Below are positions 4,468-60,580 of a stretch of 64,000 bases of DNA, piece by piece (the stretch's first letter is position 1; each line of letters begins with the position of its first letter). Both the position numbers and the translations under genes were made by a program. This DNA is from Octopus sinensis (taxonomy: Eukaryota). The stretch lies in assembly GCF_006345805.1 (NCBI RefSeq), contig NC_042999.1, positions 117,118,001 through 117,182,000 on the forward strand, written 5' to 3'. The notes under the pieces are model-generated. The model saw only the letters and a program-made list of their open reading frames with translations. It searched no databases and had not been told where the DNA came from.

Positions 4468-5403
4468 TAATAGGTCATCCCATAAGTAATGCGGTTTTTT
4501 CAGTTGCATGAACTAAAAGTCGGAGAGGGACAGGATAAACTTCCTGCATCAACTTACTATAAAAGTAGGCAATAACTTTACCTCATCCTTATTCTTAGTA
4601 CAAGTTTTAAAGAGTGCAGTTCAATTTTAACAGTTATTTTTTCAAAGCTATAATAGAAGTGACAAAGAAGCATATTCGGCATATTTTGCTTCGTGAGTTC
4701 AATAAAGGCAACAATGCAATAGAAAGTGTGAGGAATATTAATGCAGTATGTGGGGATCAGACAATAAGTGTAAGCCAGTCTTAAATGTAGTTCCAGAAAT
4801 TCCAAGCCAGAAACTACAACCTAGAAGACAAGCCTCATCCTGGAAGACCTGTAGAGCTCAACAAGGACGTCCTGCAAACCCTGGTGGAACAAAATCCCAT
4901 TGAAACTGTCAAGAAACTAGCAGTGAAGCTTGGATTTGGTCATTCAACCAGTCATTCAAGTCAGCACTAGAAGAAGAACAACCATCTTTGGTTTCAAGAC
5001 AAAAGGTGTTCTTCCATCAGGATAATGCTTGGCCACATACAGCAAGGATGACGTTTCAAAGGCTGGAGCAGTTTGAATGGGAAATAATGTCTCACCAACC
5101 ATATTTGCCAGACATTGCTCCATCTGATTATCATTTATTCTGCAGTCTTCAAAATCATTTGGATGGAAAAAATATGAATTCTATAGACGAGGTCAGAACA
5201 GTAGTGGAGGAGCATTTTTCGTAATGGACAAGTGAATTTTGGAAGAGGGGCCTTGCAAGTCTACCAGATAGATGGAAGTGTATTGTAGAAAATGAAGGTG
5301 AGTATATTTTAGATTTAAAAAGAACTGTGATTATCTTAATTTTGAAAGATAAAAGACATATATATATATAAAAAAAACACATTATTTATGGGATGGCCCA
5401 ATA
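4468..5403 (+). mobile_element. Internally deleted, degenerate mariner transposon
   Basis: Imperfect TIRs taataggtcatcccataagtaatgcgg / cacattatttatgggatggcccaata. Transposase remnants HQDNAWPH and PYLPDIAPSDYHLF (4988-5224). Confidence 0.85.
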
Positions 5404-5574: not shown

Positions 5575-5945
5575 TAAAAGAAGAAAAAGAAAATGGCGAT
5601 TGGGAAGTTAATTGTTTATTATCAACAGCAAATAAATCATTTCCACTTACATCTGTTTCAATTAATACTCAGTATTAAATTTGTATGACCTGAGCATAAT
5701 ATCTTCAGAGGGAAAAAAATATACCCTGGATATTTTATTCATTATAGCAGACTGAATGTTACGAATCCATAAACACATAAAATATCCAAGGGAATATTTT
5801 TTCTCTGAAGATATTATGTTCAGATCATATAAATATAAATTTAATATTTACTGAGTATTAATTGGAACAGTTGTAAGTAAAGATGATTAATATGCTATTA
5901 ATAGTAAATAATTATTAACTTCACAATCTCCATTTTCTTCTTTTA
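5575..5945. mobile_element. Diverged fold-back element with a hammerhead-like motif in each arm (Penelope-type pLTR-like)
   Basis: Arms ~5575-5738 and ~5778-5945 are imperfect reverse complements and directly follow a (TA)n tract. Minus 5712-5643 reads CTGAAGA-stem II-GAAAC agat GTA. Plus 5805-5875 reads CTGAAGA..GGAAC agtt GTA. Confidence 0.65.
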
Positions 5946-15589: not shown

Positions 15590-16881
15590 CGAGGGACGTT
15601 CAATAAGTAATACCTCTACCCTACTTGCAGTTGTTTGATCTAGCTGTAATTTGGCATGTGCAATTATTTATATCTCTATAGATTGAGTGAGAAATTACAG
15701 CTCTGAACTCACTGTGGTTTCTGATTTACAGGTGTTTGAACTGAGTCAAGTGTGAAATGAAGCCTGTTGAGTGTCGAGCAGTGATCCGGTTTTTGTAATT
15801 GAAAGGACGCACACCATGAGAGACTTTTGATGAAATGAAAGTAACTTATGGTGATGATGACCCATCATATGACCTTGTAAAACGCTGGCATCGTGAATTC
15901 AAACATGGTCGGAACTCTGTGAAAACAGCTCTCAGATCTGGTCGCCTCCCTTCTGCCATTGATGAGGCATCTATCCGTCAAGTTGAGGCTGCCATTTTGG
16001 AAGATCGACGCATAACTATTCGCCAAATAGCCCATGAGGTCAAGATTAGTACCTGGTCTGTGGAAACTATCATTCATGACCATTTGCATATGCAAAAGGT
16101 GTCTGCCAGATGGATTTCCAGGTTGCTCACACCTTTCCAGAAGCAAGAACTCGTCGAGTGCTCGAGGGTGAATTTGGAGATGTGCCAAGAAGATGAGTCA
16201 AAATTTTTCAAAAGACTGATTACACAGGATGAAACCTGGGTCCATCACTATGATCCAGAGACCAAAGCCCAGTCAATGCAGTGGAAGCACCGTGACTCAC
16301 CTCTCCAAAGAAGAAAAGGGTGCAGCCCTCCACTGGATAGGCCATGCTCACAGTCTTCTGGGACCAGGACGGAGTAGTGATGACAGATTTCCTGGCAAAG
16401 GGTACCACAATTACAGGAGCCTATTATGCTTCACGTTTGAGGAAATTAAGAGAAGCTATCAAAATCAAGAGGCGGGGCAAGATCAGCAAAGGCATCCTCC
16501 TCTTGCAGGACAACGCTCCGGTCCACAACTTGCTTGTCGCCAGATCAGAAGCACAGGCATGCGGCTATGAACTCCTCCCCCATCCCTCCTACTCTCCTGA
16601 CCTTGCACCCTCTGATTTTCACCTCTTCCCAGCCATGAAGTTGTTTTTGAAAGGAACGCGTTTCCCTGATGATGCAGCCTTGATTTCTGAAGTCACGTCG
16701 TGGTTGGAGGAACAAGCTGGGGTCTTCTACAAAAATGGTCTCCAGAGCTGCATCAAACGATGGGAGAAATGCGTACCTCGGTGTGGTTCCTATGTAGAAA
16801 AAGACTAATAACTGTGCCAAGTTTTGTTGCTCTACTGCTATGGGAAGTGGGTCAGGGGCATTACTTATTGAACGCCCCTCG
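15590..16881 (+). mobile_element. Full-length mariner (DD34D) transposon with disrupted transposase (15757-16808)
   Basis: TIRs cgagggacgttcaataagtaat / attacttattgaacgcccctcg flanked by TA. Motifs WISRLL, TQDETW, LQDNAP and YSPDLAPSDFHLF. Two N-terminal stops and a frameshift near 16310. Confidence 0.95.
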
Positions 16882-32465: not shown

Positions 32466-32801
32466 GAAGGTGCATGGCTCAGTGGTTAGAGCGTCGAGCT
32501 TACGATCGTGAGGTTGTGAGTTTGAATCCCGGACCGGGCTGCATGTTGTGTTCTTGAGCAAGACACTTTATTTCACATTGCTCCAGTTCACTCAGCTGTA
32601 GAAATGAGTTGTGACGTCACAGGTGCCTGGCTATATCGGCCTTTGCCTTTTCCCTTAGATAATGCTTGTGGTGTGGAGAGGAGAAGCCGGTATGCATGGG
32701 CAACTGCTAGTCTTCCATAAACAGCCTTGCCTGGACTTGTGCCTGGGAGGATAACTTTGTAGGTGCAATCCCATTATCAGTCATGACCGAAGGGGGTCTC
32801 A
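32466..32801 (+). mobile_element. tRNA-derived SINE, third family
   Basis: Head tggctcagtggttagagcg (A box) and gagtttgaatccc (B box), then ttgtgttcttgagcaagacactt. Its tail catgaccga.ggggg is shared with a minus-strand piece at 40415-40450. A related head is on the minus strand at 54255-54525. Confidence 0.8.
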
Positions 32802-32852
<51 letters not shown>

Positions 32853-32860
32853 TAATTATA

Positions 32861-34291
32861 AATAATTACAGAGGTATCAAGCTGTTGGATCAGGTGATGA
32901 AGGTTACAGAGAGGGTCATAACCCAACTAATTAGAGAGAGAGTTAGTTTAGATGAGATGCAGTTTGGGTTCGTGCCAGGGAAAAGTACCACTGATGCTAT
33001 ATTCCTGGTAAGGCAGCTGCAGGAGAAATACCTAGCCAAAGATAAGCCCCTGTACCTGGCTTTTGTTGACATGGAGAAAGCCTTCGCCAGGGTCCCCCGA
33101 TCCCTCATCTGGTGGTCAATGAGGAAACTAGGGATAGATGAATGGTTAGTGAGAGCTGTGCGAGCCATGTACAGGGACGCTGCTAGTAAGGTGAGGGTTG
33201 GCAACGAGTACAGTGAAGAATTCTGGGTAGAGGTAGGGGTCCACCAAGGCTCAGTCCTCAGCCCCCTCCTATTTATCATAGTCCTCCAGGCAATAACGGA
33301 GGAATTCAAGACAGGATGCCCCTGGGAGCTCCTCTATGCTGATGACCTTGCTCTAATTGCTGAGTCACTATCAGAACTAGAGGAGAAGTTTCAGGTGTGG
33401 AAGCAAGGTTTAGAATCGAAGGGCCTTAGAGTCAATCTAGCTAAAACCAAAGTCGTAATAAGTAGGAAGGTAGACAAATCACAAACGCCTTCAAGTAGAT
33501 GGCCCTGCTCGATCTGTAGAAAAGGTGTAGGTAGAAACTCTATAAGATGCACCAAGTGTAAGCTATGGACACATAAGAGGTGCAGCAATGTCAAAGGAAG
33601 GCTAACTAGGAAGATGGTTTTTGTATGTGGCAGATGCTCGGGAGCATTAACCTCTGAAAATCTGCAGAAAACAACTTCCGTCACTTTCCAGGGGAAAAAA
33701 CTAGAAGTAGTTGATAGCTTCCGTTATCTTGGTGACCAAGTCAGTAGTGGGGGTGGGTGTGCTGAAAGTGTAACGGCTAGAGTAAGAATAGCCTGGGCAA
33801 AGTTTAGGGAGCTCTTACCTCTGCTGGTGACTAAAGGCCTCTTGCTCAGAGTAAAAGGCAGACTGTATGATGCATGTGTACGAACAGCCATGCTACATGG
33901 CAGTGAAACATGGGCCGTGACTGCTGAGGACATGCGTAAGCTCACGAGAAATGAAGCTAGTATGCTCCGATGGATGTGTAATGTCAGTGTGCATGCTCGA
34001 CAGAGCGTTAGTACCCTGAGAGAAATGTTGGACCTAAGGAGCATCAGTTGTGGTGTGCAAGAGAGACGATTGCGCTGGTATGGTCATGTGGCGAGAATGG
34101 ATGAAGATAGGTGTGTGAAAAAGTGCCAATCCCTAGCAGTGGAGGGAAGCCGTGGAAGAGGTAGACCCAGGAAAACTTGGGACGAGGTGGTGAAGCACGA
34201 CCTTCGAACTTTAGGTCTCACTGAGGAAATGACCAGCGACCGAGACCTTTGGAAATATGCTGTGCGTGAAAAGACCAGGCAGGACAAGTGA
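32861..34291 (+). CDS. RTE reverse transcriptase, C-terminal ~476 aa, with an internal PHD-like finger
   Basis: NYRGIKLL, QFGFVPGKSTTDAIF, AFVDMEKAF, GVHQGSVLSPLLF, LLYADDL, FRYLG, HGSETW, RRLRWYGHV and RGRGRPRKTW. The ORF-track start at 32783 is a read-through of SINE and (TA)n sequence. Confidence 0.92.
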   Translation, partial: NNYRGIKLLDQVMKVTERVITQLIRERVSLDEMQFGFVPGKSTTDAIFLVRQLQEKYLAKDKPLYLAFVDMEKAFARVPRSLIWWSMRKLGIDEWLVRAVRAMYRDAASKVRVGNEYSEEFWVEVGVHQGSVLSPLLFIIVLQAITEEFKTGCPWELLYADDLALIAESLSELEEKFQVWKQGLESKGLRVNLAKTKVVISRKVDKSQTPSSRWPCSICRKGVGRNSIRCTKCKLWTHKRCSNVKGRLTRKMVFVCGRCSGALTSENLQKTTSVTFQGKKLEVVDSFRYLGDQVSSGGGCAESVTARVRIAWAKFRELLPLLVTKGLLLRVKGRLYDACVRTAMLHGSETWAVTAEDMRKLTRNEASMLRWMCNVSVHARQSVSTLREMLDLRSISCGVQERRLRWYGHVARMDEDRCVKKCQSLAVEGSRGRGRPRKTWDEVVKHDLRTLGLTEEMTSDRDLWKYAVREKTRQDK

Positions 34292-37266: not shown

Positions 37267-37380
37267 ATGCTTTCCAACATCTGCAGAATCCAGGCTCGAA
37301 GCCTAAGCCTATCTACTATGAACCGCATTAAACATGTAACTGTAATTGGCGGAGGGTTGATGGGAAGTGGAATTGCACAG
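37267..37380 (+). CDS. HADH: Hydroxyacyl-CoA dehydrogenase, mitochondrial, exon 1
   Basis: MLSNICRIQARSLSLSTMNRIKHVTVIGGGLMGSGIAQ: Arg/Ser-rich presequence plus Rossmann GxGxxG; donor CAG|gtatgt. Confidence 0.95.
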
Positions 37381-40025: not shown

Positions 40026-40154
40026 GTTGCTGCCACTACTGGACACAGTGTTACCCTCATTGACCAGAAGGATGAGTTGCTTGCTAAATCAACTGCTGGT
40101 ATCGAAAAGAGCTTGGCCAGAGTGGCAAAGAAAAAGTTTTCTGATGACCCTGAG
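40026..40154 (+). CDS. HADH: HADH exon 2
   Basis: ttcag|[43 protein letters not shown]|gttaga; 129 nt, phase 0/0. Confidence 0.95.
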
Positions 40155-40599: not shown

Positions 40600-41430
40600 T
40601 CTACCACTGATGAGAAGGTTCAGCAAGCTGGTAATGGTGAACTGGCGAGTTAACACCAATGAGGTAGCTTTTTCTCTGCAGATTAGTCATGGTTCTGCCT
40701 ATCAAATCATCCATGATAAGCTCAGTTGCCATAAAATCTGGGCAAAATGGGTGCCAAGAGAGCTTACTACGGAACTCTAGTGCAAACATCTTGAAGTCTG
40801 CCAGTGTTTACTCGATTGCTACAACAATGAGGGTGAGTAATTTTTGAGCAGAATAGTCACAGGAGATGAAACCTGGGCCCATCATTATTAGATATAATCC
40901 AAAAGAGTAAACACCTTGGCTTGCCAGTGACAAAGAAATTCAAGACTTGGTCTTCCTTGGGAAAGGTGATGCTGACCCTTTTTTTGGGACTCAAAAGGCC
41001 TATACTGGCAGACTACCTGGAGAAGGGGTGTACGATCAACTGTGCAAGATACAATGCTTTGCTGGCCAACAAACCGAAGCCAGCAATTTGCACCAAACTC
41101 CGAAGCTTATTGTCAAAGAAATTTTTCTTGTTGCATCACAATGCACGGCCACCCAGACCATTGAAACCATCAATCAATTGGGTTTTGAGGGGCTGGAACA
41201 CCCTGTCTACAGCCCAGATCTCACCCCTTTCAATTATCATATCTTTGGATTGCTCAAAGATAGTTTATGAGGTCGTTGATTTCCTACGGATGAAAATGTG
41301 AAGAAAGTGGTGCATAAATGGTTGCACGACCAGTCGAAAACCTTCTTGGAGTGAATATGCAAGCCTGCGAACCACTGGACTAAGTGCATCAAAAAGGAGG
41401 GAGACTATATAGAAAAATGACATACTTGTT
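40600..41430 (+). mobile_element. Degenerate mariner transposase fragment
   Basis: ISHGSAYQIIHDKL..KWVPRELT, RIVTGDETW, HHNARP and HPVYSPDL; multiple stops. Confidence 0.85.
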
Positions 41431-41918: not shown

Positions 41919-42076
41919 GGTGGCAAGAAGTTTATATCAGACATCATGTCTCGTATCAGCACTCACACAAATCCTATTCCTGTTATGAAAGATACGGATC
42001 TTGTTATTGAGGCTATTATAGAAAATATTGGCATCAAGCAGAAACTGTTTGCAGAACTCGATGCAGCAGCACCACA
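41919..42076 (+). CDS. HADH: HADH exon 3
   Basis: tgcag|GGKKFISDIMSRISTHTNPIPVMKDTDLVIEAIIENIGIKQKLFAELDAAAP(Q)|gtaagt; 158 nt. Confidence 0.95.
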
Positions 42077-45740: not shown

Positions 45741-45867
45741 GAATGTGATATTTACCAGTAATACATCGTCTCTTCCTATCAAAGATATTTCTGCTACAAC
45801 TAAAAGACAGGATCGCTTTGGTGGATTGCATTTCTTTAATCCTGTTCCAATGATGAAACTTCTTGAG
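45741..45867 (+). CDS. HADH: HADH exon 4 (catalytic His/Glu region)
   Basis: tgcag|[42 protein letters not shown]|gtaagt; 127 nt. Confidence 0.97.
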
Positions 45868-46538
45868 GTAAGTTCTGACTAGATGTTTTGTATCTTTTAA
45901 AATCTTTAATTTGATTAGTTTGGCTGATAGTCTTTATGTACAAGAATGTTTTTCAGCCAACCAATTGGAGGAATTTCTGGATCAGGAAAACGTTCACTTT
46001 AAGAGAGATGCTGCCATTAACAAAACAAAAGTTAGAAAGTACTGCAGTATTAGTAATGAATTACTAAGGGAGACAATCCTTACCTTACCGCAAACCAATG
46101 TGAGATGGAGTTACTAGAGGGTTGCGTGACCTGCTAGTTATAACATCACACTCGATGGTCATTGCTAAAGTGCTTTTGATCATAGATCTGCATAATCATA
46201 GCTGCTCTGAGATTAAACCTTCTTTTAAGCACTTCAAAACATACCGGTCAGCTCGTAAAATAAATTGCTAGAAAAGGTGTAAGGGCCTGATGTATTATAT
46301 ATTATTCTTTTATTCTTTTACTTGTTTCAGTCATTTGACTGCGTCCATGCTGGAGCACTGCCTTGAAGGGTTTTTAGTTTAAAAAATCAGCCCCAGAACT
46401 TATTCTTTAAGCCCAGTACTTATTCTATCAATTTCTTCTGCTGAACTGCCAAGTTGCAGGGACGTAATCACACCCAACATCAGTTATCAAATGCTGATTG
46501 GGGGACAAAAAGACAGACAAAAAGACTCATACACATAG

Positions 46539-46578
<40 letters not shown>

Positions 46579-47314
46579 CTGGCTTCTTTCAGTTTGCATC
46601 TACCAAATCCACTCACAAGGCTTTGGTTGTCTTGGAGCTATAGTAGAAGACACTTGCCCAAGGTGCCACGCAATGGGACTGAACCTGGAACCATGTGGTT
46701 GGGAAGCAAGCTTCAATTTATTAGAATAAAAATTTATAAATATTTCTATAAAAAGCTTCCAGTTGATTATGACAGTGTAATTAAATAAACTAACAAACAC
46801 TGAAATTATTGTAATTAATTATTTTTATTCTGTAACTCTGAATAAAAGCTGATTCAGAATGCAGGTGAGTCTTGTCACAGATAATGACTTTATAGTTGGC
46901 ATGAGACAGTGTACCTGTTCAATGTTATAAAGTGGTTGGATGAAATGATGATGATGATGATGCTAATGACAACGATTGGCTGTTTTCCCTGTTGCTGTGT
47001 GTGCCAGATGACAAAGGACTGGGACAGTGCAACTCATCCATGTCAGCATGGAAACAACATACGTAAGATAATAATGACAATGATAAATAGGGTCACTCAA
47101 ACAGTTACAATTAAACAAGTCCTTTCTAGATGACCATTCCTTTATACACCTTCAGATAACTTTCTTGAAAAAAGCCTCCTTTGGTCTTAAATGCTGTAAC
47201 ATAGCAATTAAGTGGAAAAACTAACAAGAAGTATCAAAGAAGTTTAAACCCTATAATCAACAGTGAATATAGCTAAAATGTAAATACATAAATACACCCA
47301 CATATATGTGTGTG

Positions 47315-48045
47315 ATCATCATCATCATCGTTTAACGTCCGTTTTCCATGCTGGCATGGGTTGGACGGTTTGACTGAGGTCTGGATAGCCAGCAGCTGCA
47401 CCAGGCTCCAATCTGATCTGGTAATGTTTCTACAGCTGGATGCCCTTCCTAATACAAACCACTCTGAGAGTGTAGTGGGTGCTTTTTATGTGCCACCAGC
47501 ACAGGAGCCAGTCAGGTGGGCTTGGCATTGATCGTGTTTGGAGAGTGTTTTTTACATGCCACCTGGACAGGAGCCAGTCAGGAGGGACTGGCATTGGCCA
47601 TGTTTGGATGATGCTTTTTACATGCCACCAGCACGGGAGCCAGTCAAGTGGTCTTGGCATCAATCATGTTTGGATAGTGCTTTTTACATGCTACCGGCAT
47701 AGTAGCCAGTCAGCAGGTACTGGTATTGGCATGTTTGGATGGTGCTTTTTATATGCTACCAGAATGGGAGCCAATCGGCAGGCACTGACCACAGCTATGG
47801 TTTTGGTTTTATTTGACTCTACAGGTCTTCTCAAGCATATCATATCACCTGATGCATCAAGGGTACTCTTAAATGCGCCGAACATGCAACACTGGCATCG
47901 GCCATGGCTGCAATCTCACTTTAGTTGCTGAGTTTTCTCAATCACAGCATATTTCCAAAGGTCTCAGTCTCCTGTCATTGCTTCTGTGAGGCCCATTGTT
48001 CGAAGGTCATGCTTTGCTATCTCATCCCATGTCTTTCTGGGTCTA
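47315..48045 (-). mobile_element. RTE LINE 3' fragment, antisense, ~5 modules
   Basis: Starts catcatcatcgtttaacgtccg; the minus strand encodes RPRKTWDEIAKHDLRTMGLTEAMT. Confidence 0.88.
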
Positions 48046-48095
48046 TACACACACACACACACATACACATCATTATTATTGATATCATTGTTATT

Positions 48096-48505
48096 AAGGT
48101 GGCAAGGTGAGAGCATCATTAGCACATTGGACGAAATGTTTAGTGGCATTATTTCTTCTGGTTTTACATTCTGACTTCAAATTCTGCTGAGGTCAACTTT
48201 GCCTTCCATTCTTTTGGGATCAATAAAATAAATATAAAATCAATATAATCAAGAAGCCCACTCTCCACATAATTTCAGGCCATGTGCCTATTGTAGAAAG
48301 GATTGCTATTATTATTTAGGCAGCAAGCTGGCACAATTTTTAGCATATTGGACAAAACGATTAGCAGCCTGGTTCTATGTTCTGAGTTCAAATGCTACTG
48401 AGGTTGATTTTGCTGTTCATCTTTTCAGGGTTGATTAAATAAGTGCCAGTTGAGAACCAGGGTTGATGTAACTGTCTAACCCTTCCCACTAAAATTTCAG
48501 GCTTT
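48096..48505 (+). mobile_element. Two tandem SINEs, same family as 146-2446
   Basis: Units start aaggtggcaagg and aggcagcaagctggc and are separated by an att tail. Confidence 0.8.
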
Positions 48506-49712
48506 GTGTGTCTCCCTCACATACCTGTCTGCACATATCTACCATATCCACCTAACCACTCCAATTTCTCTCACCATCACTTATCCATCTCTAAACATTT
48601 CTCCTCATATACTGATGAAACATTCCCCTCTAACCCATTTATATCCCCACCCCCTGTTATGTTCCATTTATATTCCCCTCCAACTGCATCTCCAATACCA
48701 TCTATTTCTCTCTCTCTCTCTTTCTTTCTCACTCTGGCTGTCTTTCTCTATCTTTTTCTGTAACCCTATCTCCCCTTCCACTCCTTTCTTTTCATACTGG
48801 GTTAACCAAGCATCTCCTCTATAGTAATGCACCCATCTCTATCTCTAGTATTCTCTAACCTCTTCTCATGGTACCACTCCCTCTTCAAGCTGACAGGTTT
48901 TTATTTTGCAACCTTGCTTGTACTGGTGCCATGTAAAAGGCACCCAGCACACTGTAAAGTAATTAGCATTAGGAAGGGTATCCAACCTTAGAATCCAAGC
49001 CAAAGCAGACAATAGAGCCTGGTGCAGCTCTCTAGCTTACCAGCTCCTCTCTAACTGTCCAGCCCATTCCAGCATGGAAGACTGACATTAAATGATGATG
49101 ATGATGGTGGTAGTGGCGAAGGTGGTGATTGTGATGATGAAGATGATGGTCAACATCATCATCACCATCATTACTCTCTGACTGGTATATCTAGTCATTG
49201 GGATGACACTCTAAATACTTTGGCAGTCAGCAAATACCACTGGTTGCTGGTGACTGTCACCTGTAGAAGAGCTGTGATGTTGAGGTTTGTCCATTACTTG
49301 ACGTTGCCAGACAAAGATAATTTTTAAAAATCTCTTCTTCACGCTCTGTGAATTGAGCTTAAGTGAATGGTTTTTGGCCTGGGTGTTGTGTTAGGATACA
49401 CGACCATAGCAGGTGAGCTTTGAACATTTCATTGTATTAAAGTGTTTTGTGTTTGGTTGCACACTTAGTTACTTGTTGCATGACAAAGTTGTTTGCCTTG
49501 TTCTGTGAAAGAGATGTGTTGCAGCCTTCTCAAACACTTGTACTCCAACATCAGCTTTGCCATCACTCTCTCTCTCGTCCTCCCTCTCCCCCCTCTCTCT
49601 CTGTATGTGTGCTTGTTATTCTAATTATTCTATTACCTGTTTATTCTCATTTGAAATATTTGCAGGAAGGTAGGGGAGTTTGTTTATAGATCATTACCTC
49701 CCTTTATACTGA

Positions 49713-49752
<40 letters not shown>

Positions 49753-49924
49753 AATATTAGGGAATAAATCCAAATTTACAGGGAAAAAATCAGATTTAGG
49801 ATTAAATCCAATTTTATAGTAAAATATTATAAAATATTATTAGAGACAAAACCACTATTTTGCAAAACAAACAAGGAAAGACTTAATCAATACATAAAAT
49901 TTTAATAAATAGTCAAAAAAACCG

Positions 49925-49967
49925 CCACTACAATTGTTTCTTGTCTTGATCGACAATCTTCAGGTGG
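49925..49967 (-). ncRNA. Minimal type I hammerhead ribozyme motif
   Basis: Exact reverse complement of 50018-50060. Confidence 0.82.
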
Positions 49968-50017
49968 ACTTCCAGTTTCAAATTATGAAATTTGAAACTG
50001 ACTTGTAAATTGGAAGT

Positions 50018-50060
50018 CCACCTGAAGATTGTCGATCAAGACAAGAAACAATTGTAGTGG
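50018..50060 (+). ncRNA. Minimal type I hammerhead ribozyme motif (predicted cleavage after GUA at 50056)
   Basis: ccac CTGAAGA ttgtc gatcaa gacaa GAAAC aatt GTA gtgg: stem I ccac/gtgg, CUGANGA core, stem II ttgtc/gacaa, GAAA, and a minimal stem III with palindromic AATT loop. Confidence 0.82.
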
Positions 50061-50153
50061 CGGTTTTTTTGACTATTTATTAAAATTTTATGTATTGATT
50101 AAGTCTTTCCTTGTTTGTTTTGCAAAATAGTGGTTTTGTCTCTAATAATATTT

Positions 50154-50184
<31 letters not shown>

Positions 50185-50811
50185 ATACACACACACACAC
50201 ATATATACATCATCATCATCATCGTTTAACGTCCGTTTTCCATGCTAGCATGGGTTGGACAGTTCAACCAGCTCCTGTGAAGCCAGGATGCTGCGCCAGG
50301 CTCCAGTCTGATCTGGCAGTGTTTCTACAGCTGGATGCCCTTCCTAACGCTCATGGCTTCCCAGACCCCGGTCGAACCATCCAACCCGTATATATATATA
50401 TATATATACATATATTATTAGGAAGCTTGCCTTCCAGCCACATGGTTTAGGGTTCTGTCCCACTGTGTGGCATCTTGAGTAAGTGTCTTCTGCTATAGCC
50501 TCAGGCCAACCGAAGCCTTGTGATTGATTTTGGTACGCAGATGTTACCATCATGAGTGTAAGTGCTTGTGCCTCCTAACAGGGTGGGGAAAAGATATATA
50601 TATTCCTCTTTCATACATTAACTAAAAGCATGTATGTTTGAAAAAGTTTATCGAAAGCGCTCATACAATAGGGAAAAAAATTTTTCCAAAATAGGTTAGT
50701 AACATCCTGATAAAAGATTTTACTACTTTAAAAAAAAAAAAATTCTTTTTAAATATCCATTTTATACTAAAAATATATTAAGTAATTTTTCACAAAGACT
50801 TTCAAATATAT

Positions 50812-51110
50812 CATCATCATCATCATCATCATTTAACGTCCGTTTTTTCATGCCAGCATGGGTTGGACGGTTTGACTGAGGTCTGGTGAGCCAGAAGGCT
50901 GCACTAGGCTCCAATCTAATCTGACAAAGTTTCTACAGCTGGATGCCCTTCTTAATGCCAACCACTCCGAGAGTGTAGTGGGTGCATTTATGTGCCACCG
51001 GCACGAGGGTCAGTCAGGCGTACTGGCATCGACCACGCTCAAATGGTGCTTTTTACATGCCACCTGCAAAGGATCCAGTCCAGCAGCACTGGCAACAACC
51101 ACACTCGGAG
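50812..51110 (-). mobile_element. RTE-type 3' tail, antisense
   Basis: (cat)n ttaacgtccg..ggatgcccttc..gggtgc. Further antisense tails at 27068-27117, 39335-39430, 50208-50350 and 59454-59636. Confidence 0.85.
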
Positions 51111-51759
51111 ATCAACCTTTGCCATCTTGAAGTCTGTTTCTTTAGTACACTTCCGCCTTGTCCAAAAATTCCCCTTCCGGTCAACTTATACTTAAAAGGC
51201 CACCCCACACGTGCTCTATCTCATTCACCTAGCAGCTATATCCTGAGTACAGATAAGTTGAAAACTTATTTTCACTTCTCGACCAATCATACTACACTCA
51301 AAACATGTTTTTATCTATCTATCTATTTTATCTACTTACTAATTACTAATACGCTTAAGCATTCCCTAAGTCCTCTCATCATTAAGTATTCCCTAATTCC
51401 TCTCATCATTATGTGCCGATAATTTCTCCATTTCTCCACCGTCCCTTTATTAATTTTGCCCGTCCAAGTCCTCGCTCTCTCGTCTATCAACCTTCGCGTA
51501 TTCGCGGTGCACCCGCCCTGCCCACCCCCACCACTTATACCGGATATCTCTATATTTTTGCTCCATCTATACCGGATGTCGCTTCTCCCACCACCATTAT
51601 AGGTGTCTACTCTTCGAACCCCCCCCTTCAATACGCTATTTCACCATGCATTACCCCTCTCGTGATATCCTACGTTCTACTTGTCTAGAACCTGTCATCG
51701 TTTCTCTGAACACCCCTCCCCACTGGTGCTCCTCTATATTTCTGCCCCCCCCCACATAA

Positions 51760-52041
51760 AGAGCACCATCCGAACGTGGCCGATGCCAGCACCGCCCCGA
51801 CTGGCTTCTGTGCAGGTGGCACATAAAAAGCACCAACCAACCGTGGCCGATGCCAGACCCCTCTGGCACCTGTGCAGGTGGCACGTAAAAAGCACCCACT
51901 ACACTCGCGGAGTGGTTGGCGTTAGGAAGGGCATCCAGCTGTAGAAACACTGCCAGACCAGACTGGAGCCTGGGGCAGCCCCTGGCTTCCCAGACCCCGG
52001 TCGAAACCGTCCAACCCGTGCTAGCGCGGAAAACGGATGTT
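51760..52041 (+). mobile_element. RTE-type 3' tail with tandem modules
   Basis: Matches 42553-42852. Confidence 0.85.
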
Positions 52042-52433
52042 AAACGATGATGATGATGATGATATATCATTAGAGTGATACCTATTGCTTTGTAGGTTTG
52101 TCCAGGATGTAAGAAAATAAGTTTACCATTGCTAATAGTGTTTAAACATGCTTCTTTTTTTTCATTAGTATCTGTAGTACAGTATCTTAACCCTTTTGAA
52201 TTTTACATTTCCATGGAATTACACTGTTACGTGTGTTTTGATAAATTTTGGGGATAAGAATCTGGTGGGATTTAGTCACTATTAATTTTAGGTTTGGTGT
52301 TCTTATGTAAAATATTGATACAAGGTTTTAATTCAATTTAAATATGGTCACTTTAAAGTTTTGAATTTTAGAAACTGCAGCATTCTTATTTGTCCCAGCA
52401 TTGAAAGTAAAGGGTAATATAACAATAATAATA

Positions 52434-53108
52434 ATCCTTTCTATTATAGGCACAAGGCCTGAAATTTGGTGGGAGTGGACTAGTTTATCACATCGATACT
52501 AGTACTCATTTGGGTACTTATTTCATTAACCCCAAGGATGAAAGGCAAAGTTGACTTTGGTGGAATTTGAACTCAGAATGTAAGATGGACAAAATGCTGT
52601 TAAGCATATTGCCCAGCATGAAATGATAAAATAATAATAACAATCCTTTCTACTAAAGGCACAAGGCCTGAAATTTGGGAGGAGGGTCTAGTCGATTGCA
52701 TTGAGCCCAGTGTTTCACTGGTACTTAATTTATCGACCCTGAAAGAATGAAAGGCAATGCTGACCTTGATAGAGTTTGAATTCAGAATGTAGCTGCAGAC
52801 GAAATACCAGTGAGCATTTTGTCTGGCATGCTAACAAATCTCTCAGGTCGGCACCTTAATAATAATAATATAATAATAATAATAATGGTTTAAAATTTTG
52901 CCACAAGGGCAGCAATTTTGGTGGAGGGCATGAATTGATTACATCAACCCCCCCCCCCCAGTGTTCAACTGGTACTTATTTTACTGACACCCCAAAAGGA
53001 TGAAAGGCAAAGTCAACCTCAATGGAATTTGAACTCAGAACATAGTGACAGACAAAATTCTGCTAAGCATTTCGCCCAACCTGCTAATGATTCCACCATC
53101 TCACTGCC

Positions 53109-53157
<49 letters not shown>

Positions 53158-53240
53158 AAATAATGATAATAATAATAATAATTGCTTCTAATTTTGGCTC
53201 AGGGCCACCAATTTTAGGGGGACAGGGATAATCAATTACA
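52434..53240 (-). mobile_element. Tandem array of ~4 SINEs (family of 146-2446) separated by (TAA)n
   Basis: Units at 52434-52620, 52642-52858, 52885-53111 and, partially, 53180-53240. Confidence 0.85.
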
Positions 53241-53479
53241 TTATATATATGTATATATATATATATATATATATGACCTATACTGTGAGTAAATTGTGGA
53301 GAGATATTCTTTTAAATTCAGTAAGTGCTGATTATTTTTTGATGACTGCACTTGACGTGGAAAATCATTAGACTCCATTTAGTTCTTTTGTATAAAGGGA
53401 GATAAATTTTGATTGCTGATATGCTAGAATGATATTTTGAAACGCCACTTGGTTGATGAATAAGTGGATGAGAGTGTAT

Positions 53480-53707
53480 TTAACCCTTTTGTTACCAGCC
53501 CTGCTGAAACCGGCTCTGGCTCTGAGTACAAATGTCTTGTTTTCATAAGTTTTGAATTAAAATCTTCCACCAAACCTTAGTCACAATTTATGTTCCTAAC
53601 ACTAGCATAATGATAATCAAGTAATTTTACTAAATTCTTTGTTATATTTAAAGTAATTGAAAGAAACACAGAGCATCCCAAAATAAATACAGTTACGAAA
53701 GGGTTAA
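53480..53707. mobile_element. piggyBac-like MITE, family B
   Basis: TTAA|CCCTTTTGTTAC...GTTACGAAAGGG|TTAA. Confidence 0.75.
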
Positions 53708-54710
53708 TATAGGAAACATTAAGAAAAAAATGGTTAATGACAACTAATATTATTTTTCCATATTTCTGGTAAACTATTTCTGGTTGGAAAGCAAACTTCT
53801 GACCATACAGCCACATAAATATTATTGTACCTTTATAATTTTACTGTTCCAGGTATTATGCATTAAATATGCCAACACTCACTCACCTGCTGTTTATGAT
53901 GCCGAGTGTGTCCTTGGATTATTTAATTTCTGAACAGTTGTATTGTTTTTTTTATCAACAAACACACATATCTTTATATTTACGTAGTGATTTGTCTATT
54001 ACAATGTTGGTGTGTATGTATGTGGCTAAATGTCTCTGATGAGTTCAGTATAATACTGAATCTTAATCAGAGTTGTCTTTTTTACTTATGGGGAAAAGTG
54101 CAAATATAATATTAGTCATTAACAAAATATTCTCCCCTGAAACATTTTATTGTACTTCAGATGTCTAATGTGTCACACATTAAATAGTCTGACTGATATA
54201 TTTACTGCACAACTGTCATTTTGCTGTAAATAAAGTGTTATCTTATATATAAGTGCTACAGACATTGGAGCACAATGTCCCAGTTGATCCAGAATGAAAG
54301 TTCAGGTGGCTGAGTGCTCCACAGAAAATGCATACCCTTAATGTAGTTCTCAGGGAGATTCAGTGTGATACAGAATGTGACAAGTCTGGTCCTTTTAATT
54401 ACGAGGCAACTCACTTTTGCCAGCTGAGTGGACTGGAACAGTGTGAAATATGCCACTGGGTATCAAACCCACGACCTGGTAACCATGAGCTGAATACCCT
54501 AACCACTAAGCCATGTACCTTCACATAATTCTGATTTAGAGAAGTTTAAATTCACTCTACAACCTTGTGAATAATACTGAATTCTTACTAACTCTTAACT
54601 TTGTTTTCTTATATAAGGTAATATGAGGAATAAGGGAAGTAACTTTGATGTTTACATATCCTCCTTGGCTGGTGAAATTAAAGTTACAGATATGTAGCTT
54701 AAAATTCTAT

Positions 54711-55044
54711 TTAATCATTTAGTATTCAAACTGGCCATATCCAGCCAAAATATTCGATGCATTTTATGTTCAAACTAGCCAGATCCAGCCTCTCACACTT
54801 ACCCTACAATGTTCTAAAAGTAAGCAATCACATTATGAAAATTTTGAAGCTATAAGATAATCCATAATTAATTCAAGATTGGAGCCTGGTGCAGCTATCT
54901 GGTTCACCAGCCCTCAGTCAAAATCGTCCAACCCATGCTAGCATGGAAAGCGGACGTGAAACGACGATGATGTTGATGAATTCAAAACAATATGAATAAA
55001 TAGACATAACGTTTGATAGAATAATCTGAATGCTAAAGGGTTAA
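54711..55044. mobile_element. Family A MITE interrupted by a ~100-bp RTE tail (54877-54978)
   Basis: Homology to 14769-14995; the insert is flanked by an aattcaa duplication. Confidence 0.8.
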
Positions 55045-57389
55045 ACAAAAAGACCTTAATCTATTTGTAACTTCTTTTGAAGTGGTGTTTCATTAGGATT
55101 AAAGAACACCTCTCCAGCTGATTATGGATTCCTGCACAAGTGTGTACCAGGTTTCTCATGGAAGATTAACAGTTGTTCATACATACAAGTTTCCTGTTAC
55201 TAGGCTGCTGATGGTGTTGAGAAAAGCAATGCTGATATAGCTTGTTTACCAGTGTTGTTGTAGGTGCTGCTGTCAGAATGCAAAAGCTGGAACAGATACT
55301 ATAAGGCTTACCATCTGATGCTCTAACAGTTCCCAGATTGGTACCTTTCTTAGATGAATTCCGAAAGATGAAAGACACTATTGAATATTTGCTTTGTTAA
55401 TTGTTTACTACAACTTTGGTGTGTAAGTGTTTGGCTGGTAAGTTCAGTATAATACTGAAACATGTCCAGAGTTGTCTCCTGTACTTACTGGAACAGTTGA
55501 AACATAACAGTTGATATCAACTAATGGGATTTCAGCTCAAGGGTACAGAGAGCTGGGAAAAATTTTACTGAGGTTTTTTATCCAATGCTCTTATGATTCT
55601 GTAAAATCACCACATAAGTGACACATAGCAATATTGTTTTAGGCCTTTCTCATGATCTGTGTCAAAGCAAAAACTGAGTTCTTAGAATCAGTAAAACACA
55701 CCAATTTCCAATTTTGTCTCTTTCCTAGTAAAAGATCTTTGTCAGCATTGTTTTCAAAAAGAAGTTAATGGTTGAGTGAAGAAGTAAATAATTTAACTAA
55801 GCATTTTAATTAATTTATTTCGACACTGATGTTGTTTAGACTGAAGATGTCCTTGATTAAATAGACTAACGATTAAAGGTATTCTAGTTATGGTAAGCCT
55901 GATCTTTTTTGAAACATAGTGTATCTAGAACTACATTGTTCAATGTAACCTTCCATTTTAAAGATGAAAATGTATAATTTGAGAAAGACTTGGTTGCTAT
56001 TTCTGACAGATTGAGTCATCACATTGAGCTAATTATTAGCTTATATGAATTGTGTTTGAGTGAAACAGATAAAGCAACACTTAAAAGAATTTTATTTAGA
56101 TATTTATTTTCTACTCTAACTGAAAAATAATCACAGGACTTGGGTTTAAAAAGTTTCATGTCACATTCTAAAATTCAGCATATGCGTGCACATACACACA
56201 CACATACACACATGGTTCAAATTTCTTCAGCTATGAACATTTTGGACTGAAAGAATCTCGGTTGTATTTTTTATTCGACTAGAGTGAAGTATGCAGTTAT
56301 TTCCCTTCACACAAATTTACATTGATATAGCTTGTCCCCCCCACACTCTCTCACCACTAGATAAGCTATCGGAAAGTGCAGATGACCCAGTTGATAGTGG
56401 TCACCAGCCAAAAGATTAGCAGTCCATCTACTTTGATGAGCACTGCTTTGTATTCATTGCTAACTTAGCAACAATGAAAAATTAATGGCTGTTTATTTTC
56501 TTCATTTAAATGTAGCTTAGAAATCGGTCGGATCAAACAGATTGACAGGCTGTATATAAACTACATAAGGATGAAGTCAACAATGGTTCCTCTATAGCAT
56601 CCCCTCCCTGCTTTTCTCATCACTATGTGCATAATTTTGATCGTAGTTCTGTTAGTTTAAGACTGATCTGAAGTTACACAATAGCTTGGTAGTAAGGTGT
56701 ATTTATCAGACTGCTCAACCAGGGCTGATGTGGGTTCACACAATAACCCAATAATGAGGTAAATCAAAGTGATGGTTAAATAATCATACAAAACATTGTA
56801 TTTTATTTATTAACCAGATTGTTACCTGTCGCTTCACTGCTGGTAAAACTATGTTTTAATCATGCACAGCCCTTCATAAATTGTTCAAAGTAAATTTCTT
56901 TTTTAAAGTCTGTTTTGCTCTGTCTATATGTTGAAAGATACAGAAACAAACAAAAAAGTGTGCATACACACATGCACATGAGTGAATTTAGTAGACAGAA
57001 ACTGAAAGAAGCCCATTGTGTGTATGTGTGTATATATACACACACACACACTAGCAAAAATTGTCTGTGAGTGTGCATGCAAGTTTGAAGGTTTATAACT
57101 AGAGTTCCACCTAACTGATTTGATTGAAATTTCAGACATGCATTTGGTATGTTCCAAGGCATGTTTTAGTCATAACAACTGCTTTCATTAATGTTCAGTT
57201 TTCGCAAAAACTCGATTGATAATTATCGATTTTTTTCACAAAGTCGTCCGATTTCAACCAAACTTGGTACACATTTGTAGTTTGACCCATGGCATCGTGG
57301 TACTCAGCAGATGACCAGAAGACTGAAACTGAACTACAGAAGCACAATGAATTTTTCCAGGCCAGCATGCGAAAGACTGTCATGACCTC

Positions 57390-59390
57390 CTAGTGCAAGT
57401 CTTCTGATTGAAGCTTATCAAACTAATGGAACTTCTTAAGGGAGGACAAATATTTGACCCCATTAGATGTGATATGTTTACTGTTGAATGGTAAAAGAAA
57501 GGCCTATCACATACTCACATTCTAATCTGGCTCTCCATAAAAATACCTCCCGACGATATTGACAAGATTATCTCTGCCGAGATATCAAACCCATCTACTG
57601 ACAGTTAATAGTTAAGGCAACCATGATCCATGGGCCATGTGGACACGGATTCAATTTAGGCTCCCCTTGCTTGAGCAACAATATCTGCTGCAAGAAGTTT
57701 CCAAAAATATTTCTGAAGGAAACGCAAACTGGCGTTGAGGTGCCAACCTGCAGATGGTGGCTTTACCATGAAAATTGGACAACATGAGGTTGACAACAGA
57801 TGGGTTGTACCATATTCACTGCTTCTTTCGAAGACGTTTGGTGCCTACATCAATGTGGAGTGTTGCCATTCTGTCAAGTCCATCAAGTATATCTGTAAAT
57901 ATAGAGCTCAGATGCCACTATGTTCAGTCTACAGCTGGAAAACTGCCGTGACATGGTCATACAATACCAAGTTGGCCATTATATTAGCAGTAACAAGGCC
58001 TTCTGGTGTATTTTTGGTTTTCCAATATACCAAAGGCACCCACCCATCAAGCAACTTGCAGTTCACCTGGAGAACAGTCAAAAGGTGTACTTTACCAATG
58101 CGATTGCTGCCAGAATGGTTGAAGAGCCTTGACAAACTAGTCTCACTGCATTCTTCGCTCTGTGCCGGAATGACCCTTTTGCAAAAACTCTGCTTTATCC
58201 CCAGGTTCCGTCCTACTACACATGGACTAAGCAACAATGGGTGTGCAGAAAGTCAGGCCAGCCAGTTGATTGGCAACCTGGTGTAAAGTTTCACAGCTGT
58301 CTTAGGAGAATTTACACGGTGCATCCGAGCCAACATGAACGCTTTTATCTTCACCTTCTATTACATGAGGTATGTGGGCCTCAGTCGTTTGATGACTTAA
58401 GGACTGTTGATGGCTCAGTTTGCAGTACTTACAGGGAAGCATGCCTCAAGTGCAGTTTGCTGGAAGATGATGCGTAGTGGGAGGCTACGTTATTTGAAGC
58501 TGTTGCATCCCAGACACCTAAGCATCTAGGAGCTCTATTTGCTGTAAGCTGCAAATTTGTGAACTGAACAACCCTTTCTCTTTGTGGCTCAAAATTTAAA
58601 GATGACTTATCGGAGGACTTCATACATCAGGCGAAGTTGCTTTTTCGTAGGATAGAAAGTATAAGCAATGAGGTATACAATCAAGCCTTGATTGACATTG
58701 AAAATACAGTCGCATCACTCAGTGGGAATGACTTGCCCTCATACAGTCTGCCTAAACCGCTGCGTTCAGAGTCAAATTTACTTTCTACAGCTATTTTGCG
58801 AGAGACGTCCTATGACACTGTTGCCCTTGCCAATTTCATCCTAGAAACTGAACTAAAGCTTCTTCCTGATCAACAGTATGTTTATAGTATTGTGACTGAT
58901 CATGTGCGCCACAGGAAAGGTGCTTTGTTTTTTCTTGATGCTCCAGTTAGTAGAGGCAAAATCTTTCTAATGAAGCTCATCCTAGTGAAGATCAGGATGT
59001 AAAAGAGCATTGCGGTTGTGGTCGCATCTTCAAGGATTGCTGCAACTTTGCTGCCTGGCAGCAGAACTGCACACTCCACCTTTAAGTTGCCCCTCAATTT
59101 AACTAAGTCAGAAACACCTACCTGCAATATAAGCAAGTGCTGAAATGCTATCAACTTATTGTGTGAGAATGAGTGTACAATGGCCCACGAGGGAGCTTTT
59201 GACACATTGAACAAAACCCTTCAGGATATCAGGGGTTGTGAAGTCTCCGTGGGAGGTGTTACGCTTTTGCTTTCAGGTAACTTTAGGCAAACTCTTCCTT
59301 TTATCCCCAAAGGCACGTGAGGAGATGAGGTTCAAGCATGCCTTAAGTCGTCTCCACTCTGGCGTCATGCTGTACACATGAGCCATGTCA
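57390..59390 (+). mobile_element. Degenerate Helitron Rep/helicase region
   Basis: Rep motifs VEW*KKGLSHTHILIWL (HUH), MIHGPCG, DNRWVVPY and INVECCHSVKSIKYICKY; GPQSFDDLRTVDG. PIF1 motifs FFLDAP..GK, VASS.IAATLLPGSRTAHSTFKLP and LLSGNFRQTLP. Confidence 0.92.
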
Positions 59391-60490
59391 GCAACTGTTA
59401 GATGTTAATTTCTATAGACTTTTCAACCCTCCATGGAATTTGTTGTTGGTGGTCATCATCATCATCATCGTTTAGCGTCCGTTTTCCATGCTAGCATGGG
59501 TTGAACGGTTCTACTGGGGTCTGTGAAGCCAGAAGGCTTCATCAGGCCCAGTCAAATCTGGCAGTGTTTCTACGGCTGGATGCCCTTCCTAACGCCAACC
59601 ACTCCGTGAGTGTAGTGGGTGCTTTTTACGTGCCAGGTTAAACATAACTGAATAAGGTTGATCAAACACACATGGACATATTTGCAAAATCAAAAATGAA
59701 CACAGTACCCATGACTTTCAGAAACATTTTTTCATGTTCAGAATTGCTGAAGCATGGAATAAACTACCTCCATCAGTTGTTAGCTGTTGAGACACTACAT
59801 CCTTCAAAATTTTCATGCTTCCTGAAATTTACCAACAGTATATCTGATGTCCCCCACCTTTTTATTTTAAAGACTCATTCGCTGATAACTCCCTGTGTAT
59901 TATTCTATGTACTGTTCATGCACTTTTGACTACTTTTTCTGATGGCTTGTAGTGCAGCTGGGCACTATATAATAACTTCATTGTATATATTCATTTTGAA
60001 CTTTTGCAATTTGGTTGTTGTTTAGTCTCAGAACAGTCCTGACTAAACAGACCTATGATCAAAGACAATCCCGCTTTGACTATCTTGTCTTTTTCCTATC
60101 TGCAAAGATTCCATGATTACATTATCCAGTGTATTTGTTTTAAGATGATAGGTTGTAATTTGAGTGAGATTTTGCTACTATTGTTAGCATGTTGAGTGAC
60201 CATGTATAGAATCATTCTGGTTTATGGGAAAGGAGGGAAAATGTAGGCAAAATGGATATACTGCCATACCCGTCCAAACTACTTTCTTAAGAAAGCAGTT
60301 TAAAGGAAAGAAAATTGGGAAAACAAACCTTTATTCATGGTTTGGGAAATGGGATATAGTCATAGACATTGAATGGAGACAGGTGGATGTATTGAGTCGG
60401 TACATTATTTTCGTAATTTTCTCTTTATATACCTACTTCACATTTTGTTTAACCATTTTTCATATTTCTCTTTTATTTATTATATTTCAG

Positions 60491-60580
60491 GTGGTAAAAA
60501 CTGATCAGACATCAGATGAAACCTTTCAATCTTTGTTGGATTTTGGTAAGGCCATGAAGAAGACGACTGTGAAATGTAAG
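60491..60580 (+). CDS. HADH: HADH exon 5
   Basis: tttcag|VVKTDQTSDETFQSLLDFGKAMKKTTVKCK|gtaaga; 90 nt. Confidence 0.95.

Follow-up and report, generated by a model that had tools for sequence, protein, structure and literature searches.

The fold-back in intron 4 of the HADH gene of Octopus sinensis is a stump-sized, dead-end insertion of a young, Neptune-type Penelope-like element. Both of its arms are copies of the element's spliced 5' leader, and we consider it fairly probable that they arose when one capped sense RNA was reverse-transcribed twice. The locus by itself is ordinary, and the interest lies in its element family: copies that are spliced, likely capped and concordant between arms point to one sense RNA primed twice, and would thus answer a question open in print, namely whether the template is sense or antisense and where the one-sided tail originates. 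Positions given below refer to the window, i.e., the whole 64,000-nt stretch of DNA that was analysed (NC_042999.1, 117,118,001 to 117,182,000, forward strand), and published systems are compared from excerpts of the papers cited.

The host gene HADH (PF02737) lies on the plus strand, with exons ending at 37380 and spanning 40026-40154, 41919-42076, 45741-45867, and 60491-60580. Exon 4 (45741-45867; PF02737 match and GT donor) and exon 5 (60491-60580; PF02737 match) define 45868-60490 as intron 4, and the fold-back lies between them, as the sequence-only reading had stated. That reading had also described a perfect fold-back from 49750 to 50157. Its 147-bp inverted arms are indeed exact over their full length, at 49828-49974 (minus strand) and 50011-50157 (plus strand), with a 36-nt spacer (another comparison gives 151 nt at 99% identity). 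The stretch 49750-49827, however, is a one-sided tail (minus strand) found on the left arm only, making the element asymmetric. This tail corresponds to extra 5'-UTR between a short and a long reverse-transcription start site, and in full elements its sequence runs on into the ORF leader; in L195, for example, the long end lies at +227 and the ATG at +288 of exon 2. Left arm and tail together match full elements at 219-221 of 223 nt. The (TA)n tracts noted earlier on both flanks, at 49714-49757 (overlapping the first tail bases) and about 50152-50173, represent the target microsatellite.

A descriptor scan of both strands of the 64-kb window returned exactly the two opposed, minimal type I hammerheads previously read from the sequence, at 50018-50060 (plus strand; sense in the HADH pre-mRNA) and 49925-49967 (minus strand), and no others. 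Their CUGAAGA cores lie at 50022 and 49963, respectively, with predicted cleavage after 50056 on the plus strand and 3' of 49929 on the minus strand. Each has the CUGANGA/GAAA/UH core, a stem I of 4 bp, a stem II of 5 bp, and a stem III of 2 bp with a palindromic AAUU loop 3; Rfam gave no hammerhead family match at the fold-back at E<=1. The RNA fold of the complete fold-back has a predicted energy of -253.9 kcal/mol (z -36.5), equalled by 0 of 100 shuffles.

The small hairpin that had been proposed for the centre is no motif of its own: it is exon 1 of the element, carried by both arms, with the left copy broken by a deletion. Specifically, the left-arm exon 1 copy (49973-49989, minus strand) covers +3 to +19 from the inferred start site, as judged against the unspliced copy L082, and its joint with exon 2 (49828-49974) bears an 8-12-nt deletion with TG microhomology. 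The right-arm exon 1 copy (49989-50008, plus strand) covers +8 to +27 and ends at a minor donor (AA/GTATGT). It is followed by exon 2 at 50009-50157, which runs from the splice acceptor (TTTTAG/ATTGG) to the short start site, the 1820-nt intron being absent. The head-to-head junction falls at 49989, a single nucleotide common to both arms. The right arm of the window copy used donor 2; the left arm was spliced as well and has lost a few bases across its joint.

The 43-nt hammerhead is present in 750 exact copies in the genome, compared with 0 for the control. The earlier description of a young, non-coding element of Penelope-like origin is borne out by these 750 mismatch-free repeats and by parent elements encoding a reverse transcriptase (RT) and a GIY-YIG nuclease. 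An ordered sample was drawn from the loci of the first 100 listed of the 750 matches, giving 76 stretches (plus one further locus). Head-to-head pairs occur at 35 of these 76 loci, 19 of the 76 being mini fold-backs resembling the HADH-intron copy. Of the 117 arms in the sample, 112 terminate in (TA)n of four or more repeats. Parent units of 6.2 kb (L189-L204) read acceptor, hammerhead, ATG, RT (YRDD), CxC..C, GIY-YIG, start site, intron, and hammerhead; the pseudo-LTRs are in tandem, most units having one hammerhead ahead of the ATG and a second ~6.2 kb downstream. The single ORF begins 288 nt into the hammerhead exon and encodes an RT, an Asn-rich stretch, a Cys linker, and, at its C terminus, a GIY-YIG-type nuclease, with the motifs YRDD and VVYK..YIG..R..H..E..N in L195, L196, and L204. 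These protein motifs are conserved in 11 homologues, cysteines C141, C143, C149, and C155 of the linker being invariant; the named homologues are from Argonauta and Octopus, and the parent ORF copies bear frameshifts. Pfam-A named neither domain of the protein, a PDB sequence search with its nuclease half gave no match, and its alignment to an adjacent Poseidon-like ORF fell short of significance. None of the ORF was present in eight stretches searched upstream of copies, these copies being truncated. The Asn-rich stretch of L189-L204, between RT and nuclease, is long, and a similar one has been described for rotifer Penelope families (PMC3846280, excerpt).

Judged from its sequence, the parent is an endonuclease-bearing Penelope-like element, with the corresponding ORF, pseudo-LTRs, inverted arm and tail, and 5'-UTR intron. 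Its Zn-finger-like Cys linker and microsatellite target would place it in the Neptune clade, a call made on motifs rather than on a tree, and the parent units match the Neptune-type layout described in excerpts of Craig et al. (2021; PMC8557442). According to the same source, inverted, 5'-truncated arms with a one-sided tail are typical of endonuclease-bearing Penelope-like elements, and minimal hammerheads 100-700 bp apart on opposite strands have been reported from Schistosoma (Cervera and de la Pena 2014; PMC4209133, in part). The object is therefore of a known kind, its inverted 5'-truncated arms, one-sided tail, and opposed hammerheads already being in print. Like the elements covered in the excerpts of PMC8557442 and Arkhipova et al. 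(2013; PMC3846280), those described here have an inverted, 5'-truncated copy, a tail at one end, a junction palindrome, a (TA)n target, an initiator TCACT in the pseudo-LTR, and an intron in the 5' UTR. The tail is longer (about 77 nt versus 30-40) and the intron here is 1.8 kb. In contrast to those excerpts, a large share of the copies here consists of leader cDNAs that lack the intron and probably carry a cap G.

A MITE or fold-back DNA transposon was considered and rejected, as centres and arm lengths vary, the ends are asymmetric, and the arms match a retroelement leader. The short, non-coding hammerhead units derived from pseudo-LTRs do recall animal non-LTR retrozymes as excerpted from bioRxiv 10.64898/2026.07.22.740005, which form head-to-tail tandems, whereas the HADH-intron copy is a single head-to-head pair and not a series of head-to-tail monomers with a circular RNA. 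The tandem form was seen at L089 and also at L070, where head-to-tail units of 408 and 456 nt, respectively, combine the hammerhead exon with the tail and the start of the ORF; we read them as retrozyme-like or as made from a circular template. A different Penelope ORF, which we take to be Poseidon-like, lies in pieces beside another locus (L113, 1117-4360, plus strand).

The evidence for a spliced template begins with the unspliced copy L082. There the sequence found at the centre of the fold-back, with GTAAGTATGT after it, stands 1820 nt upstream of the hammerhead exon, and TTTTAG immediately precedes that exon. Two alternative donors 4 nt apart (GACTT/GTAAGT and GACTTGTAA/GTATGT) join this single TTTTAG acceptor, giving a parental layout of start site, 23- or 27-nt exon 1, 1.8-kb GT-AG intron, hammerhead exon, and ORF. 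In the HADH-intron copy the intron is missing from both arms, and the copy stops within exon 1. The 117 arms of the ordered sample comprise 38 spliced at donor 1, 1 at donor 2, 54 unspliced, and 24 that are foreign or too short, so that the 5'-UTR intron adjoining the start site was kept in 54 arms and spliced out in 39. An origin of the short form by plain deletion was rejected, as two donors of the element and several host donors all meet one acceptor.

Spliced arms also end where a transcript would begin. Among 100 listed donor-1 copies (105 in all) that reach the A of TCACTTC (+1), 85 stop there by hand count, and 60 of these 85 carry an extra G in place of the genomic C, compared with a G content of 18% in flanking DNA; this count may be inflated by microhomology, because the partner arm has a matching G for most of these additional bases. 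The remaining 15 of the 100 listed copies are spliced and extend upstream of +1, showing that splicing is not confined to the cap-proximal leader. Ends within exon 1 were seen for 35 of the 39 spliced arms of the ordered sample and for 0 of the 54 unspliced ones, of which 17 continue past exon 1 on its upstream side; 8 arms are ambiguous at a variant break. An extra G has been read as a mark of capping, or of copying of the cap, in L1 (PMC11702581, in part). The arms, then, are copies of a spliced 5' leader that stop at an initiator-like start, and their template was likely capped. The family also suggests why Penelope introns seem to be retained, in that copies from the downstream repeat mostly keep the intron and leader copies lose it. 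In four unspliced arms (L056, L064, and L072), the end falls within the intron, 26-37 nt from its 5' end, which would fit a template lacking exon 1. Spliced copies that extend past the inferred start were seen at L060 and L203, the latter running into ORF-start sequence.

One tailed and one tail-less arm were combined in 56 of 57 pairs (36 from the ordered sample and 21 from a best-match set chosen with the form of the HADH-intron copy) and in 36 of 37 further loci. Splice form was concordant in all 36 informative pairs, 12 each being unspliced, donor 1, and donor 2; the other 21 of the 57 pairs were uninformative, and a few pairs repeat the same event (L026/L027 and L060). Of 37 rows, 16 have a variant at column 41 in both arms, and no row is mixed. 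Each of donor 1, donor 2, and the host chimeras described below is found on both haplotypes. The same junction is seen in both tail orientations and on several haplotypes, which indicates that the pair is rebuilt at each insertion. All of these patterns were read from one assembly.

The preferred reading, one capped sense RNA copied twice, would proceed as follows. The element's protein would cut both strands of a (TA)n tract and prime from each 3' end, and priming would occur at two internal sites ~77 nt apart, just behind the hammerhead, in line with excerpted in vitro work on the Poseidon element PAc (Frangieh et al. 2024; PMC11167929). With priming sites so placed, reverse transcription would run off the cap after 170-250 nt. 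The second polymerase would displace the first cDNA, and the two cDNA 3' ends would anneal through 1-4 nt of microhomology and be filled in, yielding a palindrome of head-to-head arms of which a single one is tailed. One RNA primed twice is favoured because snap-back copying cannot supply a tail, and because copying of two independent RNAs would give pairs of mixed splice form; a sense template is required because the copies are spliced. This differs from the antisense template with self-priming that was proposed in PMC3846280, which, in the part consulted, left a sense template open.

According to the PAc excerpt, both strands undergo cutting and extension, the tail is delimited by two internal start sites, and the template is uncut RNA, all as envisaged here. 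The PAc sites lie inside the ORF and were used alike on both strands without difference, so that start-site usage in vitro would not alone give strict long/short pairing. The sites here, unlike those of PAc, lie in the 5' UTR, end in AT-rich, target-like sequence, and show strict long/short pairing. A further parallel is L1 5' transduction and twin priming, in which two primers act on one RNA and the products are joined by microhomology. L1 twin priming inverts sequence without duplicating it, unlike the present case, where the sequence is duplicated as an inverted repeat. Two primers per RNA, microhomology joining, and an extra G (PMC11702581, in part) are shared features.

An alternative that we regard as unlikely is that a single cDNA was made from the same spliced sense template, after which its 3' end snapped back and copied itself, the hairpin being resolved at the short site by endonuclease or repair; fuller tail-less arms would then be short-site first strands with later rearrangement. 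This accounts for all of the arm concordance and for private variants found on both arms of one locus, which occur at four or more loci (L013, L068, L072, and L094) and are more simply explained by snap-back or gene conversion. The commonest junction, a stem with a 4-nt loop closed by a cap-derived base, fits a one-cDNA snap-back equally well as sequence, and both self-priming (PMC3846280) and endonuclease resolution of the tail (PMC8557442) have been proposed in the excerpts cited. At 35 loci with a cap junction (L218 left out and L222 counted once), only the tailed arm is full length in 24, as a snap-back would have it, but the tail-less arm alone reaches +1 in the other 11, and a snap-back cannot put the tail on the copied arm. 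The tail-less arm also reaches further 5' in L052, L071, and L080, being >1.2 kb longer in L080, and zero-spacer centres at AATT or TTATAA (L029, L033, L067, L068, and L094) leave no loop. The private shared variants and the excess of fuller tailed arms make snap-back possible for part of the events.

Less probable still is that two RNAs from one active source locus were copied, one per end, or that the arms were later equalised by gene conversion. A single active source per cell would explain the shared variants, and the PAc protein is a predicted dimer that extends both strands in vitro (PMC11167929, in part). Left unexplained are the 36/36 agreement in splice form, including 12 of 12 donor-2 pairs when the ordered sample has a single donor-2 arm among its 39 spliced ones, the rare host chimeras on both arms, and the strict long/short pairing. 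An assembly artefact, through palindromic long reads or arm-to-arm polishing, is highly improbable. Contigs of four DNA-type runs include none that spans the HADH-intron locus, as filled or empty allele, and polishing could have aided the 147/147 arm identity, but the arms are asymmetric in the same manner at >90 loci, their flanks are unique and unmirrored, and head-to-head centres of the Penelope-like family also appear in contigs assembled from short reads of other runs.

The sequence-only reading had seen in the fold-back a self-masking ribozyme element in which pre-mRNA cleavage is made conditional. Several of its premises stand: the antisense arm is transcribed first whichever strand is used, and the long duplex is predicted to sequester the hammerhead, all hammerhead helices having pair probabilities of 0.0 inside the fold-back. 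The switch itself loses its footing, since a lone arm is predicted to fold the hammerhead barely (0.002-0.09 for stem I, 0.02-0.34 for stem II, and 0.001-0.01 for stem III), so that there is probably little activity to mask; two copies of the arm are predicted to co-fold through the palindromic loop as a dimer helix. In the excerpts of PMC4209133, published monomeric minimal hammerheads do not cleave, or cleave poorly, and those in PMC11167929 need the element's protein, the uncut RNA being the main template. The template here was likewise uncut, since both arms are cDNA that runs through the scissile bond. No pile-up of 5' ends was found at the cut site, with 0 of 11 arms truncated inside exon 2 starting there (the sample required one intact hammerhead per locus). 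Like the PMC4209133 hammerheads, as excerpted, those here have a short stem I, a palindromic loop 3, opposed pairs, and an intron end next to helix I; unlike those cases, splicing here leaves the hammerhead stems unchanged, and the two opposed hammerheads trace back to a single insertion.

A non-autonomous element kept because its duplex makes cleavage conditional is therefore very improbable, even if the duplex removes the hammerhead fold in prediction and such hairpins are common (19 of 76 loci). The centres vary from one locus to another and turn up in either orientation; a master hairpin has therefore not spread as a unit, and solo arms and multi-kb pairs arise by the same process. Rather than a class of its own, the fold-back is the default insertion geometry of its parent, rebuilt at each insertion and already published. 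Masking in the HADH pre-mRNA is predicted and likely an incidental by-product that follows from this geometry. A 147-bp duplex in cephalopod pre-mRNA would be expected to be edited.

The element's acceptor has also been joined to host exons. In L095 (C2, 76.94 Mb), exons 1-4 of VPS37A, whose source gene lies on C15 (100% identity; E 9e-31 to PDB 8e22), occur in both arms and are joined at their GT donor exactly to the ATTGG of the element acceptor. A second VPS37A copy, L117 (C2, 4.87 Mb), carries the same rare variant and may derive from L095. Both are hairpin retrocopies of exons 1-4, with 96% of about 1.2 kb predicted to be paired and an 18-nt deletion in the right arm. In another example, L030 holds, in both arms, two exons of an RNA from C3 that end at a GT donor where ATTGG begins. 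Finally, in L256/L257, five exons of a DUF4674 gene end at their own donor and are joined to ATTGG, again in both arms. All three of the chimeras that were traced thus show exact splice joints. A search for exon-like AG ends before the acceptor gave 30 pattern matches at 22 loci. In 7 of these, which are pairs, both arms contain sequence foreign to the element as far as the acceptor, and an eighth has an inverted copy of its non-element sequence; L256/L257 is the traced case from this search.

Host exons spliced onto the element's acceptor would be copied into both arms by the same route, giving a hairpin retrocopy of host mRNA. No source element was found within 60 kb below VPS37A exon 4 (a search that covers the whole intron, as later exons lie 15-17 kb on), within 160 kb below the two-exon RNA of L030, or within 100 kb below the DUF4674 exon, with no Ns in any of these stretches. 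We lean toward the explanation that trapping alleles have been purged or are polymorphic; that the joint was made by trans-splicing is possible, at rather less than even odds. The window copy cannot trap host exons, having lost the acceptor. If the trap is real, it would work in cis via short-lived intronic copies or by trans-splicing, and hairpins such as the roughly 0.4-kb VPS37A hairpin could feed Dicer or ADAR, providing a retroelement route to hairpin-RNA genes. For host genes, the danger of this family may lie in its splice acceptor and not in its ribozyme, and host-exon hairpins would be what it leaves behind. The fullest version, in which every insertion makes two cDNAs per capped RNA, the acceptor acts as a gene trap, and tens of host-mRNA hairpin retrocopies regulate their parent genes, is offered as a tentative and somewhat doubtful proposal.

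Penelope is known to mobilise host genes in trans, and here too host sequence was moved by the element's enzymes; unlike the rotifer case excerpted in PMC3846280, which keeps introns between direct pseudo-LTRs, spliced host exons here join the element acceptor and are duplicated as an inverted repeat. A literature search in full text found no paper on spliced-leader fold-backs, the cap G, or host-exon capture at a Penelope acceptor, and subscription papers (e.g., Arkhipova 2006, Evgen'ev and Arkhipova 2005, and Repbase reports) and supplements may hold cases.

Other sequences were seen next to the acceptor as well. Foreign sequence occupies both arms of head-to-head pairs at L249/250, L252/253, L254/255, L259/260, L262/263, L266/267, and L258. 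L248 has rhodanese-domain coding sequence (PF00581) joined to the acceptor in a single arm, and the same RT fragment of another retroelement is joined to it at both L269 and L273. The foreign piece adjoining the acceptor of L012 could not be traced to a source. At L251, L261, and L264, CCTAAG stands in front of single copies; the surroundings of two of these resemble each other and are repeat-like, and a cryptic donor in a SINE may be involved.

The window holds a second, older fold-back of another family at 5575-5945, within (TA)n and with degenerate hammerhead cores at 5708 (minus strand) and 5805 (plus strand). It had been put forward as the same design, pointing to a general class. It is a second example, but an imperfect and older one that has no sequence in common with the HADH-intron fold-back. 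Its family yielded 1217 candidates at first look, the best other copies being about 75-88% identical, and relatives have intact, palindromic-loop CUGAAGA...GAAAC-AGCU-GUA cores on both arms and a one-sided extension. This supports a general insertion geometry, not a special class. Elsewhere in the window, a 526-aa open frame with RVT_1 and PHD domains (32711-34291, plus strand) is a piece of a non-LTR retroelement behind a (TA)n tract, and plus-strand segments at 15820-16808, 4904-5224, 40870-41301, and 57717-59220 are presumably mariner-like transposase remnants and a helitron-like helicase remnant.
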